Of a DNA stretch of 64,000 bases, positions 53,590 through 61,630 are shown one piece after another. The notes under the pieces were generated by a model. It saw only the letters and a program-made list of their open reading frames with translations, made no database searches and was not told where the DNA came from. Position 1 is the stretch's first letter. Every line of letters starts with the position of its first letter. The DNA is from an uncultured bacterium. Its GTDB lineage: Bacteria; Desulfobacterota; Binatia; HRBIN30; CADEER01. The position numbers were made by a program, and so were the translations under genes. The stretch is from the NCBI GenBank assembly GCA_902826395.1, contig CADEER010000013.1:6560-70559 (forward strand), in the 5' to 3' direction.

Positions 53590-54852
53590 TCAAAAGACGA
53601 AGCTCGCTTCGAACCATGCGCGCCAACGGTCGGGCAATGGCTCGGTGCGGCCGTCGAAGTAGGCGAACTTGGTCAGCACCGTGACATACGGCCCGAAGGC
53701 GCGCTGCAGGATGGCGTCGAGCTCCCAGCCGAGGGAATCACTGCCCTCGTCACTCCAGAACCGGTGGTAGATGAATCCGCTCTTCATGCCCCAGGGCAGT
53801 TGTGGCGTCACGCTGCCGTAGAGGTCCTGCAAGCCATTGGGACCGCCGTTGTCGAGAAAGGCGTCGGCCCAGCCGTTGAACTTGTGCGCCGTGGAGAGCG
53901 GTGTGACGAAACGGGCCTCTCCGTCGTCGGACCCGAGGAGCTCGTAGCCGAGGGCGACTCCGCCGATTCCCTGATAACTGGCGCCGCCTTCGGCAGCGAC
54001 GTAGTGGGCCACGTAGTCGACCGGGTTGTTCGCGGCGTCGGTCTGCGCCGCGTAGGACGCCGCGTAGGACAGCGCCCATGGCGCGGTAAGCGGCTGCGCC
54101 CCGGTGACGCGCAGGCCGTACGAATTGGAGGAATTGCCCGGCGAGTTCTCGAAGTCGAGAAGGTAGGCGAAGGCGGCGATCCGCGCGGTCGGCCACGCGT
54201 CGTAGCCGATGCGCAGCAGATGTGAATCGGATCGAAAGTTTCGCAATGCCGGCGGTCCCTGATTGGCGAAGATGCGAGTCACGTAGTCGATGTACCCGTA
54301 CAGCAGTGACAGATGCTCGACTCCGAGGCTGGTCGAGGCGCGCACGGCGTCGAAGACCTGTTCATTCTGACGCCACGCGACGTCGCCAATGAAGCGATGA
54401 TCGTCGAGCGCCATGCGCTGGCGGCCCACCGTGGCGTCGGCACCCCAAAGCGTGGGGTTCTGGTAGCGCACGAAGAGCTGGTGCAGATCGGTGTCGTCCG
54501 GGTCCGCGATCGGTGTCTGACCGGTCGGCTCCTCGACTGCGTCGAAGTACTGATCGCCATCGATCGCCAGGACATTTTGCAGCTCGGCATATCCCGACAG
54601 TCCGTGGAATGGCTTCGAACCGACGCCGAGAAGCGTTCGTATCGTGTACGCTTGCGACGACTCCAGGGACTCGAAGTCGGCGAGCTCGATTCGCGCTCGG
54701 ACGTTGAGATTCACCTTGTAGTACTCGTTGTCGAGCAGTCGCCGCACTTGATCGCTCGTGGTCGGCGACGGCGCTGGCGGCTCGGCGGCCCAACCGGCGC
54801 ACGCGGCGCACACAACCATGTTGGCGATCGGCCAGCTCCATCTCCACCGCAT
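53590..54852 (-). CDS. Outer-membrane beta-barrel, alginate-export family porin
   Basis: Signal peptide, GRQRMALDDHRFIGDVAWRQNEQVFDA, TAHKFNGWADAF and terminal Phe (ASFVF). Confidence 0.8.
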   Translation of the reverse strand: MRWRWSWPIANMVVCAACAGWAAEPPAPSPTTSDQVRRLLDNEYYKVNLNVRARIELADFESLESSQAYTIRTLLGVGSKPFHGLSGYAELQNVLAIDGDQYFDAVEEPTGQTPIADPDDTDLHQLFVRYQNPTLWGADATVGRQRMALDDHRFIGDVAWRQNEQVFDAVRASTSLGVEHLSLLYGYIDYVTRIFANQGPPALRNFRSDSHLLRIGYDAWPTARIAAFAYLLDFENSPGNSSNSYGLRVTGAQPLTAPWALSYAASYAAQTDAANNPVDYVAHYVAAEGGASYQGIGGVALGYELLGSDDGEARFVTPLSTAHKFNGWADAFLDNGGPNGLQDLYGSVTPQLPWGMKSGFIYHRFWSDEGSDSLGWELDAILQRAFGPYVTVLTKFAYFDGRTEPLPDRWRAWFEASFVF

Positions 54853-54872: not shown

Positions 54873-57119
54873 CTATTGGTTCCGCCGCCCACTTCGAGTG
54901 GGCCCGTTGTTTCGTCTCGACGCCACGAAGCGCTCGATGCGCACGGCCGCCATTTTGTACGACGGCTGGCGCGAGTGAGGGTCGAACGCGGCGAAGGTCA
55001 AACGGTTGGTCTCGGCGAAGTGCATGGGCATGAAGACCTGACCGATCCGGATCGAGCGGGTCGGGCGCGCGGTCGCGATGGCGGATCCGCGGCGCGAGAC
55101 GATGCGGACGCGATCTCCGGCGCCGACGTCGAGTCGCGCCGCGTCGTCGGGATGGATCTCCACGTAGGGTTGCGCATCCGACAGCTTCCGCAGCACCGCC
55201 GATTTGGCGGTGCGCGTCTCGGTGTGCCACTGCGCGACTCCGGCGCGGCCACTGAGCAGCGTCATCGGATAGGTGGGATCGGGCCGTTCGGGAGCAGGGC
55301 GCGGCTCGTCGATCACGAAGCGAGCCTTGCCGTCGGTGTGAAAGAACGCGCCGTCGGCGAACAGCCGGCGCTGCGTTGCCGGCTGCTCGGTGCCAGCCGG
55401 GCAGGGCCATTGAATGCCGCCCTGCCGCTGCAGATCGGCGTAGCCTCCGATGCCGCTGAAGTCGCAGGGCTGGCCTGCCGACAGGTCCTGCAAGATGCGG
55501 AACGCCGCTTCGGGCGATGTCCAACGCCGCACCGTTTCGGCGCACCCCCAGTATTCGGCGACCAGGCGGAAGATGTGGAAGTCGGCGAGAGCCGCGCCCG
55601 GTGCTCGGCTGACCTTCTGTATCAGGCCGATCCTGCGTTCGGAGTTGATGAACGTTCCGGTCTTTTCCCCCCAGCCGGCTGCCGGCAGAAACACGTCCGC
55701 GCGCTGCGCCGTCTCGGTCGTGCGATAGAGATCCTGCACGACGAGGCAATCCAGATTCGCGAACGCCTCGCCAAGGCCGGCGCTGTCGATCCAAGAGTGC
55801 ACTGGATTGGTCGCCACGACCCACAGCCCGCGGATCCGCCCTTCTCGAATCCGCTCGACGATGTCGTCGTACGTCCGGCTCTCGGCGGCCGGGACGGCGT
55901 CCTCGTCGACGTCGAGGACGCGCGCCACTTCGGCGCGCTGGGCTGCTCCAAAGGTGCGGCCGCCCGGCAGGCAGGTGATGTTGCTGAATAGGCGCGAGCC
56001 CATGGCGTTGGTCTGACCGGTGATCGAGTTGGCTCCGGTGCCCGGCTTGCCGATGTTGCCGGTGAGCAGCGCCAGATCGATGATCGCCTGCGCCGTGCGC
56101 ACGCCTTCGTGGCTTTGGTTGACGCCCATCGTCCACCAGAACGAAACACGCCGTCCGGGTCGGATGAGATCGGCGAGCGCGTGCAACTGCGCTTCGGCGA
56201 GGCCCGTCTCGCTGCAGACCCGCTCGGGGTTGTAGGCGTCGACGTGGCGGGCGAAGTCGGCGAAGCCGCTGGTGTGGCGGTCGACGAACTCGCGGTCGAT
56301 CCAGCCGCGCCGCAGCAGCAGGTATGCGAGACCGTACAGCAACACCAGGTCGCTCTTCGGCCGCGGTGACACATGCAGCGTTGCCATCGCCGCCGTCTCG
56401 GTAAGCCGCGGGTCGATTACGGCGATCTGCGGGTTGCGCCGGTTGCGCAGCACCCAATGCCAGAGAATCGGGTGTGCGATCGCGGGATTGGCGCCGACGA
56501 AGATCAGTACGTCGGAGAGTTCGAGATCCTCGTAGGTGAAGGGCGGCGCGTCGAATCCGAACGACTGCTTGTACGCGACGTGCGCGGTCGCCATGCACTG
56601 CCGCGTATTGGAATCGCCGTCGATGCCCATGCCGCCGCGCGCCACCTGGCCGAGCAGCGCCATCTCCTCGGTGGTCATCTGACCGGTGCTGAGGAACGCC
56701 AGCGCCTCGCTGCCGTGCTCGACCTGGATGGCGCGAAAGCGTTGCACGAAGGCGCGCATCGCCGTGTCCCAGTCGACCGGACGCAGGGCGCCGTCAATGC
56801 GTAGGTACGGCGTCGCAGCCCGATCCGGCGCGCTCAGCGGCGCCAGCGCCTCCCACCCCTTGGGACAGGCCATCCCCGCGTTTACCGGATACGCCGGCGA
56901 CGGGGTCAGGTTGACGGCGCGGCCGTCGCGCATGTGCACATCCAACGCGCATCCGGTCGAACAGAAGCCGCAGATCAGGGTGCGCAACTCTTCCGGCGCA
57001 AGGCGCGCCGGAATACGCCCGAGGTCAAAGCCGCCCGCCACCTGCTCGAGCTCGGTGCTCAATGGGCCGCGCCGCCTGAGCATCAGGTCGGCGAGCCGGA
57101 GTGCACTTTCGGCGAGCAT
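54873..57119 (-). CDS. nasA: Assimilatory-type molybdopterin nitrate reductase catalytic subunit (short, no C-terminal [2Fe-2S])
   Basis: CGFCSTGC...CPKG [4Fe-4S] motif; Mo ligand NTRQCMATA; [14 protein letters not shown] and SRQPSYK motifs. Confidence 0.85.
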
Positions 57120-57127
57120 CAGTGCCT

Positions 57128-58672
57128 TCAGGGATTCCGCGGCGCGACCGCGGCGCGAAAGAAGAGATGGCGGTCGACGCCGTCGCCGGCGAGCCACAAG
57201 GCGCATGCGAGTACGGTGGTCATCGTCGGTTGCGCGATCAGTGCGGTGGCGCCGAGCAGCACGGCACATGCCGCGGCCGCCGCCAATCTCATGTGCCACC
57301 ACGGGCGCAGCGCGCCGCCGAGGAGTTGGCGAGCGGTAGAGGGCGCCTGTCGCCAGCCGTCCCACACCTCGAAGAGTATCTTCGCGACCACCGCCGCGGT
57401 GGCGACGCCGACCAGCAGCGGTCGAATCTCTTCACCGCTGAGCCGATGCGCGAGCAGCAACAGCACGGCGCCGGACGCAGCGGCGGCGAGGAAGAACCGC
57501 GCCGGCGTCGCGGTGCGCGCCCAATGATCGCGCGGCGTATCCCGGTAGACCATGGCAGACGCAAAGGCAGCCGCGATCCCCGTCGCGCCCGTGAGCGCGA
57601 CCAGTCCGCGATCACCACCGATCTGAAGAGCGTGCGCCAGCGCCGCCGCCGCGGCGAGCCCGGCAAATGCGGACAGAGCGACGATCTCGCGACTGAGCCA
57701 CGACGTGCGCAGCCCGAGCACGGCGCGGAAGGCCCACTGCGGCCGCCCGAGATGGAAGAGCGCCGCGACCATGCCGGCGACGGCGCTGCCGAGCCCGAGG
57801 CTGATCGCCGTCCCGTGCGCGTCGCCGATCGGCAGCACGGCCGCCAATCCCAGGATACCGATCGCCGCCTGTGTCAAACTCAGCATCACCACCAGCGAGG
57901 GGTGCGACTCCGCCGGCGCGGCCGCCACAGCGATCGCGGTCGGCGCGGCGTGCGAGCGCGAGACGTATGCCGTTGTCGGGCGCGTGTAGCTCGCGTCGGG
58001 CGCGCCGGGTACCGCCGCGAAGCGCTCGGAGCATGTAGCCGCGGTCAGGTCGGTGTCGACGACGGTGATGCGGATCGCGTCGCTCGGACAACTCTGAACG
58101 CAAGCGGGCGCCTCGCCGGCGGCGAGGCGATCGGTGCACATGTCGCATTTGCGGACGATGCCGCGCGCGGCGTTGTACTGCGGCACGCCGTACGGGCACT
58201 TCATCACGCAGTACTGGCAGCCGATGCATTGGTCGTCGAGGTGGCGAACGATGCCAGTGTGCCGGTCCTTCTCGTAGGCGCGCACCGGACAGCCGCTCAG
58301 ACAAGCCGGGTCGAGGCAGTGGTGGCAGGCCGCCGTGACATGGCGCAGCAGAGGCTGCGCATCGTCGCCGCCGAGCAGCAATCCGACCGAGCGCCACGTC
58401 TCGCCGGGGTCGAGTCCGTTGCGGTTGTGGCAACCCGTGACGCAGGCCTTGCAGCCAGTGCAGCGATCGAGATCGACCTCGAAGGCGTACTGTTGTCCAG
58501 GATGGGGCGGCGCCGCCGGCATCAGGCCGCGGTAGCGCGCCGCGCCGGCGGCGATGTCGCCGCGCTCATGCGCGAGAGCAAAGGATTCCGCGGCACCGAG
58601 ATTCTGCTGCTCGCCCAGCGCGTCGGCGAGAAGCGTCGCGTTTCGTTCGATGCCGATCGGCTGCGGGATCAT
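57128..58672 (-). CDS. Fused DmsB-like 4x[4Fe-4S] protein and DmsC/NrfD-like 8-TM membrane anchor
   Basis: [42 protein letters not shown], then HPSLV and HLGRP..SWLSREI. Confidence 0.85.
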
Positions 58673-59070
58673 TCGGCCCTCCCGCATGGCGCGTGGGTCG
58701 CCGCGGTGCGCTCGCGTGCGACGACCTCGGCCGACGGCACGCCGACGAATACCCGACCATCGGCGACTACACGTACCGGGAAGGTCAACAGATCCGGCGT
58801 GTCGCCGGCGAAGGCGGCGCCAGTGCGCAGCGAGAAAGTGCGCTTGTGCATCGGGCAGGCGACCTTGGGTTCGCCGTCGCGCTCACCGGTCATCCCGCGC
58901 CACAGCACTTGCTCGTTCCAGTGCGGGCAGCGGTTCTGGACGGCATACCACTCGTCGCGCGCAGCGATCCGGAACACGGCGATCTGGATTCCCTCATAAA
59001 AGACGCAGGCGCCGCCGTCCGGAATCACGTCGTCGCGATGACACACGGCGATCCACAGCGGCTCAGACAT
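58669..59070 (-). CDS. nirD: Nitrite reductase small Rieske subunit
   Basis: NRCPH and VACPMHK Rieske ligands; QIAVFR motif. Confidence 0.92.
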   Translation of the reverse strand: MSEPLWIAVCHRDDVIPDGGACVFYEGIQIAVFRIAARDEWYAVQNRCPHWNEQVLWRGMTGERDGEPKVACPMHKRTFSLRTGAAFAGDTPDLLTFPVRVVADGRVFVGVPSAEVVARERTAATHAPCGRAE

Positions 59071-61630
59071 GACGCGCCTCTTCGAAGCGCACCGGCGCGT
59101 CCTCGTGCGGACCGCCATTGACGGGCGGCAGGGAGATGGCGCCGCCGCCCGAAGACGGGCGGATCTGACCGCGCTCGTCGGCGAACGCGATCGACGGGTC
59201 GCTTTCCGACGCGTTGACGAAGGCGCGAAAGCGACTCCGCTTCTCCGGGTCGTTGACGACTTCGGCCCACTCGCAGCGATAGCCGTCGACGGCCGCCTGC
59301 ATCTCGGCGTCGAGCTGCGCCCCGATGCCGAGCACGTCGTCGATGATCACGGCCCGCAGGTAGTCGATGCCGCCGTCGAGCTCTTCCAGCCAGCGCGCCG
59401 TGCGGGTCAGCGGATCGGCGGTGCGGATGTAGAACATCAGAAACCTGTCGATGTAGCGCAGGCAGGTCTCGTCATCGATGCCGGCGGCGAGCAGCACGGC
59501 GTGCCGCGGCTTCGAGCCGCCGTTGCCGCAGACGTAGAGATTCCAGCCTTCGGAGGTGGCGATGATGCCGAAGTCCTTGCTTCGGGCCTCCGCGCACTCG
59601 CGAATGCATCCCGACACCGCCGACTTGAGCTTGTGCGGCGCGCGCAGGCCCTTGTAGCGCTCTTCGACGCGGATCGCGAAGCCGACCGAGTCGAGAACGC
59701 CGTAGCGGCACCACGTCGATCCGACGCAGCTCTTCACGGTGCGCATCGCCTTCGCGTAGGCATGGCCGCTCTCGAAGCCGGCGGTGACCAGGTCTTCCCA
59801 GATGTCGGGCAGTTGATCGAGACGGGCGCCGAGCATGTCGATGCGCTGGCCGCCGGTGATCTTCACGTACAGGTTGTAGCGACGCGCCACTTCGCCGATC
59901 GCGATCAGCTTCTCGGCGGTGATCTCGCCGCCCGGAATGCGAGGAATCACCGAATAGGTGCCGCCGCGCTGGATGTTGGCGAGAAAGCGATCGTTGGTGT
60001 CCTGGATGACCGGCTGCTCGCTCGCCGGCTCGGCGTGGATCGATGCGAGGATCGACGCAACGACCGGCTTGCAGACCTCGCAGCCGCCGCCGCGACCGCA
60101 CTGGGTGAGCACCTCGGAATAGGTGTGGAAGCCGCGCACCCGGACGAGATCGAACAGCTCCTGTCGGCGCAGCGCGAAGTGCTCGCAGATCTGCTTGCGC
60201 ACCTCGACTCCGGCGCGCTGCAGCTCGCGCTCGAGGACTTGTTTGATCTGAGGCCCGCAACCGCCGCACCCGGTGGTAGCCTTGGTACAGGCCTGGATCG
60301 CCGGCATGGTGACGGCGCCGCCGGCGACCGCGGTGACGACGTCGTCAACGGTGACGTTGTTGCAAGTGCACAGCAGGCTGTCGCCGGTCAGCTCGGCGCC
60401 TTCGCCGCCGCGTACCGCCGTGCCGTCGACGATCAGCGACAGCGGCCGCTCCGGCAGAGGCTCGGCTCGGCGGAACAGCCCCAGCAGGTTGGCGTAGTCG
60501 CTGGTGTCGCCGACCAGCACCGCGCCGATCAGGGTGCGAGTCTCGCGGCGGACGATCAGCTTCTTGTACACGCCGGCGACCTCGTCGCGCACGGCGACGT
60601 GCGTGTGCTCCATCGTCTGCGGCGCCGTCGACTCACCGATCGAGGCGACCTCGACGCCGAGCAGCTTGAGCTTCGTCGACAGGTCGCCGGCGCGGAACGA
60701 CTTGTCAAAGCCTGCAATCTGAGCGGCGGCGACGTCGGCCATCTCGAAGCCCGGAGCGACCAGGCCGTAGACCGTGCCGTCGTGGCTGGCGCACTCGCCG
60801 ATCGCGAAGATGGTCGGGTCCGAGGTGCGCATGGTCGCGTCGACCGCGATGCCGCCGCGCGGTCCGAGCTCGAGGCCGCAGCCGGCGGCGAGCTCCTGGC
60901 GCGGCTTGATGCCGGCCGAGACGACGATCAGATCGACGTCGAGCGACTCGCCGCCGTCGAAGCAGAAGCGCATGCCGCCGGACTCGGTTCCGATGATCTC
61001 GTTGGTGCGCTTGTTGGTGTGCACTTGCACGCCGAGTGCTCGGATCTTGGCGGCGAGCAGCTCGGCGCCGTCGCGATCGAGCTGGCGCGGCATCAGCCAC
61101 GGCGCGGCCTCGACGACGTGGGCGCTCAAACCCAGATCGTAGAGAGCCTTGGCGGCCTCGAGACCCAGCAGGCCGCCGCCGATCACCGCTGCCGACTGGC
61201 GGGAAGCGGCCGCGTCGCGGATCGCGTCGAGGTCTTCGATGGTGCGATAGACGAAGACACCGCGTCGGTCGATGCCTGGCAGCGGCGGTACGAACGGCGC
61301 CGAGCCGGTTGCCAGGACCAGGTGGTCGTATCGGACCTCGAGTCCGCCGCCGGCGGCGACGACCCTGCGCCCGCGATCGACCGCGATCGCGGGCGTGCCG
61401 ACGCGCAACTCGATGCCCTGATCGCGGTACCAGGAGCGCGGTGCGATCTCGAGGTCGGCGGCGCTCTTGCCGGAGAAGTACTCGGTGAGATGCACGCGAT
61501 CGTAGGCCGGGCGCGGCTCCTCGCCGAGCACGACGATGCGGAAGCGCTCGCAGCCGCGGGTCTCGCGCAGCAGCGCGCAGAAGCGCTGCCCGACCATGCC
61601 GTTGCCCACTACGACGACCGTCTGCTTCAT
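59063..61630 (-). CDS. nirB: NADH-dependent siroheme nitrite reductase large subunit
   Basis: GNGMVG and GGGLLG FAD/NAD motifs, BFD CTCNN and CEVC, siroheme ligands KSCVGSTWC and SGCIREC. Confidence 0.96.
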   Translation of the reverse strand: MKQTVVVVGNGMVGQRFCALLRETRGCERFRIVVLGEEPRPAYDRVHLTEYFSGKSAADLEIAPRSWYRDQGIELRVGTPAIAVDRGRRVVAAGGGLEVRYDHLVLATGSAPFVPPLPGIDRRGVFVYRTIEDLDAIRDAAASRQSAAVIGGGLLGLEAAKALYDLGLSAHVVEAAPWLMPRQLDRDGAELLAAKIRALGVQVHTNKRTNEIIGTESGGMRFCFDGGESLDVDLIVVSAGIKPRQELAAGCGLELGPRGGIAVDATMRTSDPTIFAIGECASHDGTVYGLVAPGFEMADVAAAQIAGFDKSFRAGDLSTKLKLLGVEVASIGESTAPQTMEHTHVAVRDEVAGVYKKLIVRRETRTLIGAVLVGDTSDYANLLGLFRRAEPLPERPLSLIVDGTAVRGGEGAELTGDSLLCTCNNVTVDDVVTAVAGGAVTMPAIQACTKATTGCGGCGPQIKQVLERELQRAGVEVRKQICEHFALRRQELFDLVRVRGFHTYSEVLTQCGRGGGCEVCKPVVASILASIHAEPASEQPVIQDTNDRFLANIQRGGTYSVIPRIPGGEITAEKLIAIGEVARRYNLYVKITGGQRIDMLGARLDQLPDIWEDLVTAGFESGHAYAKAMRTVKSCVGSTWCRYGVLDSVGFAIRVEERYKGLRAPHKLKSAVSGCIRECAEARSKDFGIIATSEGWNLYVCGNGGSKPRHAVLLAAGIDDETCLRYIDRFLMFYIRTADPLTRTARWLEELDGGIDYLRAVIIDDVLGIGAQLDAEMQAAVDGYRCEWAEVVNDPEKRSRFRAFVNASESDPSIAFADERGQIRPSSGGGAISLPPVNGGPHEDAPVRFEEARHV

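Follow-up and report, generated by a model that had tools for sequence, protein, structure and literature searches.

A fused DmsB/DmsC-like protein paired with a signal-less NasA homologue as a probable cytoplasm-facing quinol:nitrate oxidoreductase

Here we describe a two-gene module in a 64,000-nucleotide stretch (the window) of contig CADEER010000013.1 from an uncultured bacterium of the Binatia. The first gene, called X (57128-58672; positions are those of the window, and all of its features named here lie on the minus strand), encodes a protein of 514 amino acids in which an iron-sulfur (Fe-S) domain is fused to a membrane anchor of the DmsC/NrfD type. The second gene, nasA (54873-57119), encodes a putative nitrate reductase catalytic subunit of 748 amino acids. 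The two products probably form a cytoplasm-facing quinol:nitrate oxidoreductase, in which X would serve as Fe-S wire and flipped quinol anchor for the signal-less NasA, with no redox loop. The initial annotation, made for positions 57128-57910 (residues 255-514 of X and the stop codon), had proposed that the NrfD fold is flipped here, with its Fe-S side in the cytoplasm. This proposal is supported by the lack of export signals throughout the family, by a bias of positive charges that is reversed relative to control anchors, and by the nitrate importers and the cytoplasmic nitrite reductase NirBD encoded in the neighbourhood.

The N-terminal half of X contains a DmsB/PsrB-like electron-transfer domain (58055-58492) with 16 cysteines in four groups (71, 74, 77, 81; 116, 119, 124, 128; 149, 152, 155, 159; 176, 179, 191, 195), which gives room for four [4Fe-4S] clusters, and all 16 are invariant across 62 X homologues. 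Pfam places the four-cluster ferredoxin domain Fer4_11 at residues 66-215 (expectation value, E, 1.8e-22). The best NCBIfam match of this half is TIGR02951 (DmsB; E 1e-40), at 139 bits against an equivalog cut-off of 214. By its cysteine groups and fold, X is a four-cluster subunit of the DmsB/PsrB/FdnH type, yet it is no DmsB orthologue, because the equivalog cut-off of TIGR02951 is missed. Ahead of the DmsB-like start lies a conserved extension of 60 residues (58493-58672; consensus of the 62 homologues LIDxLLxEQQxLTAVERFAxxH...YRxLxPxxxPxPGQQYAF), with neither a signal peptide nor a Pfam match. Two or three helices are predicted in it at a low predicted local distance difference test score (pLDDT) of 41-68, and it may be a docking or maturation element.

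The C-terminal half is an eight-helix membrane anchor domain of the DmsC/NrfD type (57128-57910), as identified with Pfam, AlphaFold2 and Foldseek. The family model PF04976 (DmsC) matches residues 304-510 of the 519-amino-acid reading of the gene (E 6.8e-13; profile positions 56-273 of 275), and its score of 49.1 bits exceeds the curated cut-off of 22.3. Stand-alone DmsC relatives are found by phmmer at E values down to 8e-12. Eight hydrophobic segments were detected by a hydropathy scan, and the AlphaFold2 model, built from the 62-sequence alignment (mean pLDDT 89, predicted template modelling score (pTM) 0.88, anchor mostly above pLDDT 90), contains eight long helices (258-279, 283-305, 325-348, 354-377, 389-411, 418-442, 456-476 and 483-506) and two short helices in loops. 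No haem-ligand motif was seen in the anchor sequence, although sequence alone cannot prove that a cofactor is absent.

For both halves, the closest solved folds found by Foldseek are those of PsrABC from Thermus thermophilus (PDB 2VPW-2VPZ). The N-terminal half matches PsrB (2vpw_B; template modelling score, TM-score, 0.70 on target), FdnH (1kqf_B) and ArrB (6cz7_B), and the C-terminal half matches PsrC (2vpw_C; TM-score 0.71 on target) and ActC. However, sequence identity with PsrABC is only 16-29%, and PsrABC is a periplasmic complex. The eight helices of PsrC are arranged as two four-helix bundles, with both termini and the quinone site on the face of the Fe-S subunit, which is the membrane's positive side (P-side) (PMC8076601).

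The residues that mark the quinol site of DmsC/NrfD anchors (His, Ser, Glu and an Arg in transmembrane helix (TM) 8) are all found in X. The loop from His307 to Glu329 (57686-57754) is collinear with His65...Ser82...Ser85...Glu87 of Escherichia coli DmsC and aligns without a gap to DmsC HLGSPMRAFNSLNRVGASALSNE. In the alignment, His307, Ser324, Ser327, Glu329 and Arg501 of X correspond to His65, Ser82, Ser85, Glu87 and Arg271 of DmsC, and H307, S324, W325, S327, R328 and E329 are invariant in the 62 homologues. His65, Ser82 and Glu87 are given as the quinol site of DmsC, with mutational work cited for His65 and Glu87 (PMC8076601). In TM8, Asp500-Arg501 (57170-57175) lies in a segment with the family consensus E-R-x-L-F-F; R501, which aligns with DmsC Arg271, does not vary among the homologues, at least 90% of which have an acidic residue at position 500. 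An arginine of the DmsC Arg271 type is located mid-membrane, at the meeting point of proposed proton half-channels (PMC8076601). The near-invariant charges inside the second four-helix bundle of X are Lys431 (TM6), the acidic residue 500 and Arg501 (TM8), and these buried charges could serve proton movement; for relatives, conserved charges of this kind within the membrane have been discussed as proton paths.

Export signals were searched for with a crude test, namely a twin arginine together with a hydrophobic core, which E. coli DmsA passes as a positive control. The N-terminus of X shows neither an RR motif nor a hydrophobic core, read either from the longest possible start (ATG at 58687) or from the probable one (58672), and no start codon exists further upstream than 58687. 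None of the 62 X homologues has an RRxFLK-like motif with a hydrophobic core, or an N-terminus resembling a signal for the twin-arginine translocation (Tat) or general secretory (Sec) pathway. In NasA, an RRR motif is followed by charged residues, not by a hydrophobic stretch, and the longest upstream open frame is also without a hydrophobic core; among the NasA homologues from 79 loci, no N-terminus combines a twin-arginine motif with a hydrophobic core. With this test, covering both starts of X, NasA with its upstream frame and the DmsA control, the earlier statement that neither X nor NasA has a Sec or Tat signal is borne out. Moreover, no third conserved gene with an export signal was found in the X-nasA neighbourhoods. 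The periplasmic position and the Tat-exported catalytic subunit that go with DmsC/NrfD anchors thus appear, judged from sequence, to be absent from X and NasA.

The second line of evidence is the distribution of lysine plus arginine (K+R) in the loops of the anchor. By an independent hydropathy assignment, the loops of X after TM2, TM4 and TM6 and the C-terminal tail carry 4, 4, 4 and 3 K+R, while the opposite loops carry 0, 1, 2 and 0 (15 versus 3), which reproduces exactly, as K+R, the arginine counts that the initial annotation had given from a manual helix assignment. In the 62 aligned homologues, which are 43-66% identical to X, K+R average 15.0 in the Fe-S-side loops and 2.1 in the far-side loops; the bias has this direction in every one of the 62, and the smallest difference is +9. 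As a control, 74 full-length stand-alone DmsC relatives were collected by an exhaustive search with E. coli DmsC, and loop borders were set on E. coli DmsC. In this set the Fe-S side carries 3.6 K+R against 8.0 on the far side, with the canonical direction in 62 of 74.

Loop lengths are nearly equal in the two groups (21-22, 15-16 and 24-29 residues), so that between the X family and stand-alone DmsC the charges have moved while the loops are unchanged. For example, the loop after TM4 of X can be compared with YLLPAQPAWNSFATPAAFG in a relative whose partner carries a Tat signal and with YNSIDTVPTWYSIWTPMGFF in E. coli DmsC. More telling is the near absence of K+R from the far-side loops of the X family, with 2.1 compared with 6-8 in each of the Tat-linked cases. 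Two other ways of setting loop borders were abandoned. The helix ends of the AlphaFold model overrun the membrane core and swallow most charges, and hydrophobic-core borders were used in their place; borders of X carried by alignment onto distant stand-alone anchors were misplaced by loop insertions, and the anchor P0476 was counted manually instead.

Genomic context was inspected for seven stand-alone anchors (P0476, P0493, P0335, P0359, P0325, P0302 and P0347). Three of them, P0476, P0493 and P0335, belong to operons with the order A-B-C-chaperone, in which the A subunits have textbook Tat signals (MTSRRSFLKWSALLAGATALGG; SRRRFLQWSAVAGGAAGA). All three have their K+R on the far side; in P0476 this holds for most of them (16 versus 5 by manual count), and P0335 falls into the canonical group. 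Five representatives of DmsC show a reversed bias, and they sit on long branches, not in one clade. In P0359 (15 versus 1) and P0325 (11 versus 1) the Fe-S side is the heavier one and the A subunits have no twin arginine, while P0302 is on a 1-kilobase (kb) contig from which no context was obtainable. Two of the three outliers with usable context have Tat-less partners and one a Tat-like partner, which gives partial support to a correlation between charge and export. The X-family anchors form a single clade (100/100) on a long branch away from stand-alone DmsC relatives.

Two metagenomic loci (L093, 2076-5882; L095, 1931-5852) contain DmsABC-like three-subunit operons in which the A subunit lacks a twin-arginine signal and the stand-alone DmsC anchors have their K+R on the Fe-S side (15 versus 1 and 11 versus 1). 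They are candidates, by their sequences, for further cytoplasm-facing inverted DmsC systems with unfused subunits.

The eight helices of X align one-to-one with those of DmsC and PsrC, and the linker between the Fe-S domain and helix 1 is about 20 to 50 residues. With this short linker and eight helices, the Fe-S domain shares one face with both termini and with the loops following TM2, TM4 and TM6, and X has no ninth helix able to place the Fe-S domain on the opposite face. The Fe-S domain would thus be placed on that face of the anchor fold which DmsB occupies on DmsC, and if it is cytoplasmic the whole module is therefore flipped. In DmsC, too, both termini and the quinol site lie on the face of the Fe-S subunit, which is periplasmic. 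A folded four-cluster domain cannot cross the membrane without Tat, and its fusion to the anchor therefore speaks for ordinary insertion in which the N-terminal domain remains inside; we know of no case in which Tat export of a folded domain is followed by insertion of eight helices. It is almost certain that the Fe-S domain of X faces the cytoplasm, in contrast to the orientation of textbook relatives.

NasA is predicted to be the catalytic subunit of a nitrate reductase of the Nas/Nap type with a molybdenum-bis(pyranopterin guanine dinucleotide) cofactor (Mo-bisPGD). Its Pfam domains are Molybdop_Fe4S4, Molybdopterin and Molydop_binding, and it has no reductase domain or extra ferredoxin domain of its own. 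The cluster motif is C50-x2-C53-x3-C57, and the putative molybdenum ligand is C175 within RQCMATA. The features of assimilatory-type enzymes are found together in it: no signal, an N-terminal [4Fe-4S] motif, a cysteine in a Nap/Nas-type motif, and nitrite reductase and uptake genes as neighbours. These are also features of Klebsiella NasCA, Paracoccus NasBGC, Bacillus NasBC and cyanobacterial NarB, which are cytoplasmic, signal-less, Cys-ligated Mo-bisPGD enzymes with an N-terminal [4Fe-4S] cluster and with nitrite reductase and uptake genes alongside. The 47 residues ahead of the cluster motif (56979-57119) contain no signal peptide but a GPLTxEL core that nearly all of the 79 partner NasA genes share. 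This N-terminal stretch of NasA could be an interface with X or a remnant leader; in nearly all of the 79 loci, tblastn matches begin at NasA residue 18.

We scanned one genome per species and obtained 80 loci. A NasA homologue (53-64% identity) is located directly downstream of X in 79 of the 80, and the exception is a 1.8-kb contig which ends just past X. As regards the A-B-C architecture of molybdoenzymes, the two genes are adjacent, with a gap of 8 nucleotides in the window, and their products are putative partners in one complex. The nirB gene was found inside the fetched flank in 50 of the 80 X loci, leaving about 30 without it. A transporter gene of the major facilitator superfamily is often found upstream; it is the sole extra conserved neighbour that came out of clustering of open reading frames, an analysis muddied by shadow reading frames in this DNA of high guanine-plus-cytosine content. 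Hosts of X-nasA include Sorangium and other Myxococcota, Planctomycetota, Verrucomicrobiota, Omnitrophota, Poribacteria, Fibrobacteria, Lentisphaera and some Pseudomonadota, and a database search with the fused X gives more than 7,500 matching proteins at E <= 1e-10. Among 40 relatives of the source organism, full-length X is present in none of 5 congeners and none of 12 members of the same family, and occurs only in 4 of 5 genomes from one genus of another family of the order (about 47% identity). This distribution suggests that the X operon was horizontally acquired.

In the proposed mechanism, the cytoplasmic side of the membrane would hold the Fe-S domain of X, its two termini and its quinol site (His307, Ser324, Glu329), and NasA would dock on the Fe-S domain to give a cytoplasm-facing A-BC complex. 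Quinol would be oxidised at His307/Glu329 on the cytoplasmic face, and electrons would run through the four clusters to the [4Fe-4S] cluster of NasA and then to molybdenum. Nitrate would be reduced in the cytoplasm for assimilation, with the resulting nitrite passing to NirBD. From ubiquinol or menaquinol to nitrate the drop is about 0.3-0.5 V (standard potentials), and with a drop of this size the direction of electron flow is therefore safe. The protons of quinol would be released on the same side on which protons are consumed, without the charge separation of NarGHI. It is a reasonable inference that nitrate reduction by NasA-X is roughly electroneutral, because X has no recognisable haem and both sites would lie on one side. 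NarGHI is likewise membrane-bound, with a cytoplasmic active site, and oxidises quinol. However, its anchor NarI carries two haems b and a quinol site on the periplasmic side, and its redox loop gives 2 H+ per 2 e-, whereas X has no haem motif and a predicted quinol site on the side of the active site. A variant in which NasA-X is electrogenic, either with quinol protons led to the periplasm or with the quinol-to-nitrate drop driving proton transfer, is decidedly unlikely in our judgement.

Several observations weigh against this reading, and the first group concerns orientation. The Fe-S-side loops of X are longer than the far-side loops (78 versus 21 residues), and K+R density is just 0.19 versus 0.14 per residue, so the weight lies on the family-wide contrast and on the contrast with the controls rather than on the counts in X itself. 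That the Fe-S domain of X docks on the face with the quinol site is a model-based prediction, drawn from topology and pTM and not from measured distances. In the literature, no topology, activity or complex experiment was found for any member of the X family. In P0347, whose K+R favour the Fe-S side (15 versus 6), the A subunit nevertheless has an apparent Tat signal (KRRSFLGWSSFFGGAALF), and the charge rule is thus imperfect within the DmsC family. The operon with this Tat-like A subunit (KRRSFLGWSSFFGGAALF) lies at L096 411-4339; its anchor count of 15 versus 6 includes three positive charges in the N-terminal tail, and it conflicts with the positive-inside rule.

P0347 could be taken in favour of the textbook orientation, in which NasA and the Fe-S domain reach the periplasm through a signal that escaped recognition or by hitch-hiking, with the anchor placed as in DmsABC. 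All structurally or genetically mapped relatives of the DmsC, PsrC and NrfD type do face the periplasm (PMC8076601). Nevertheless, this orientation is very improbable for X, given that Tat or Sec signals are missing from X (62 sequences) and NasA (79 loci), that no signal-bearing third gene is conserved nearby, and that the far-side loops are nearly free of K+R (mean 2.1). It would also have to accommodate nitrite being used by the cytoplasmic NirBD with nitrate importers encoded alongside, as well as Tat export of a folded domain joined to eight helices, for which there is to our knowledge no known case.

The second group concerns the identity of NasA, which scores far below the equivalog cut-offs of the NCBIfam models NF041323 for NasA (459 versus 1000 bits) and NF047855 for NasC (425 versus 1100 bits). 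On its sequence it would be a distinct subfamily, not an orthologue of curated NasA or NasC. It also ties with the NCBIfam model for formate dehydrogenase alpha subunits (458 versus 459 bits, both below cut-off). Full-length models cannot separate NasA from formate dehydrogenases, and over its full length its best matches in the PDB are to cytoplasmic formate dehydrogenases; many X homologues are moreover named 'formate dehydrogenase iron-sulfur subunit' at the Joint Genome Institute. These scores, matches and names would fit a partner that is a formate dehydrogenase or another oxidoreductase, with X delivering electrons into the quinone pool. The active-site segment speaks against such a partner: NTRQCMATA finds its best match in N-A-R-H-C-M-A-S-A of NapA, in which the Cys-Met of nitrate reductases, here within RQCMATA, is aligned to RHCMASA (E 4e-14), whereas formate dehydrogenases match at E 6e-9 or worse. 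In addition, nirBD and nitrate transporter genes accompany nasA across phyla, and we regard a formate dehydrogenase or similar enzyme as extremely unlikely.

The third point is the electron donor. The nirD gene (58669-59070) encodes a Rieske-type small subunit (Pfam Rieske_2, E 2.3e-26), whose translation, read directly, keeps both ligand motifs of the Rieske [2Fe-2S] cluster (NRCPHW and ACPMHK), so that a route from NADH through NirB and NirD may feed NasA as well as X or instead of it. In Paracoccus NasBGC, the nitrate reductase receives electrons from the NADH-dependent subunit by way of NasG, and by its ligand motifs the NirD encoded here resembles this electron-carrying NasG rather than a cluster-less NirD. 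X could then be cytoplasm-facing without being the main donor, acting as a membrane tether by the nitrate transporter or as an overflow link to the quinone pool in either direction. The CxH...CxxH Rieske ligands, the position of nirB-nirD directly upstream of X here and in many fetched loci, and the NasB-NasG-NasC precedent of Paracoccus are in line with such a supply. It is harder to reconcile with the adjacency of X and NasA in 79 of 80 loci, including the roughly 30 without nirB in the flank, and with the invariant 16 cysteines and quinol-site His, Ser and Glu, which a mere tether would not need. A four-cluster subunit by a catalytic subunit is, besides, the canonical electron path of this enzyme class, and we consider NADH as the main source of electrons unlikely.

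The quinol-fed, cytoplasm-facing complex can be compared with several known systems. E. coli DmsABC shares with X the same two modules in the same order, the 16 cysteines, an eight-helix PF04976 anchor, the gap-free loop from His65 to Glu87 and the arginine in TM8. However, DmsA has a Tat signal, DmsB and DmsC are separate proteins, a chaperone DmsD is encoded, and the K+R of DmsC are distributed canonically (4 versus 8). DmsAB sit on the periplasmic face (PMC8076601).

A flip of such an anchor has one proposed precedent, SoeC, so the idea itself is known from a different enzyme. For SoeC of the sulfite:quinone oxidoreductase SoeABC, an inverted orientation is expected, with the quinone site on the membrane's negative side (N-side) and with peripheral subunits that are thought to be cytoplasmic (PMC8076601). 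SoeABC of Allochromatium vinosum and Aquifex aeolicus resembles the proposed X-NasA complex in being a Mo-bisPGD enzyme that faces the cytoplasm, with a four-cluster subunit and an eight-helix anchor that lacks haem and is similar to NrfD/DmsC, and the listed quinone-site residues of SoeC, which was compared by description only, are the same (His65, Ser82, Glu87; PMC8076601). On the other hand, SoeABC consists of three separate subunits and oxidises sulfite, with electrons entering the quinone pool, whereas in X-NasA the B and C parts are fused, the catalytic subunit is of the Nas/Nap clade, and electrons are expected to leave the pool for nitrate. X-NasA and SoeABC have a working principle in common, though not membership in one family. 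No SoeC was identified by the anchor-only search, which gave mostly partial copies of the fused protein and Tat-type DmsABC-D operons.

Classical assimilatory nitrate reductases are soluble enzymes whose electrons come from NAD(P)H, ferredoxin or flavodoxin. In the survey of Wells et al. (2020), no member of the Nas/Nap/Aio/Fdh clade was associated with canonical four-cluster or membrane-anchor subunits (PMC7331816), and X-NasA differs from the surveyed Nas/Nap clade by having such an association. A NasA with a fused DmsBC partner was not described in the literature that we searched; most subscription journals were outside this search, which makes it weak evidence of absence. The wiring of a Nas-type nitrate reductase to a four-cluster/anchor module seems to be undescribed.

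X and nasA are part of a tightly packed operon on the right end of the window with the core order nirB-nirD-X-nasA. Two adjacent genes for ATPases of ATP-binding cassette (ABC) transporters (63893-61643) lie upstream of nirB and presumably encode NrtC and NrtD of a nitrate importer. The second of these ATPases, of 474 amino acids, has about 200 extra N-terminal residues without a Pfam match. The nirB gene (59063-61630) encodes the large subunit of an NAD(P)H-dependent sirohaem nitrite reductase (Pfam Pyr_redox_2, Fer2_BFD, NIR_SIR_ferr and NIR_SIR), which is a cytoplasmic enzyme. The ATG of X comes directly after the nirD stop, and the ATG of nasA, preceded by GAAGG, is 8 nucleotides past the stop of X. 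The last gene of the operon (53590-54852) starts 20 nucleotides past nasA and encodes an outer-membrane protein of 420 amino acids with a partial Alginate_exp match (E 6e-11). This porin of the alginate-export type might act as a channel for the anions nitrate or nitrite. The runs in which the stretch occurs are DNA metagenomes only, from wastewater, biofilter and soil. The source genome is a 423-contig assembly, and its sequence occurs in wastewater and biofilter metagenome runs.

If the proposed function is true, a large group of bacteria would meet the cost of assimilating nitrate out of the respiratory quinone pool, as the module is present in thousands of metagenomic proteins from many phyla. 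The energy bookkeeping of growth on nitrate would change, because NADH can first pass the proton-pumping complex I instead of going straight to nitrate, and assimilation would be tied to the redox state of the membrane. Should the electrogenic variant be true, X-NasA would be a haem-less, cytoplasm-facing nitrate reductase and a third energy-conserving kind beside Nar and Nap, widespread in Planctomycetota, Myxococcota, Verrucomicrobiota and others. For the evolution of membrane proteins, the family would offer a clean and testable case of a whole electron-transfer module that was flipped, with the redistribution of lysine and arginine visible in homologous loops.

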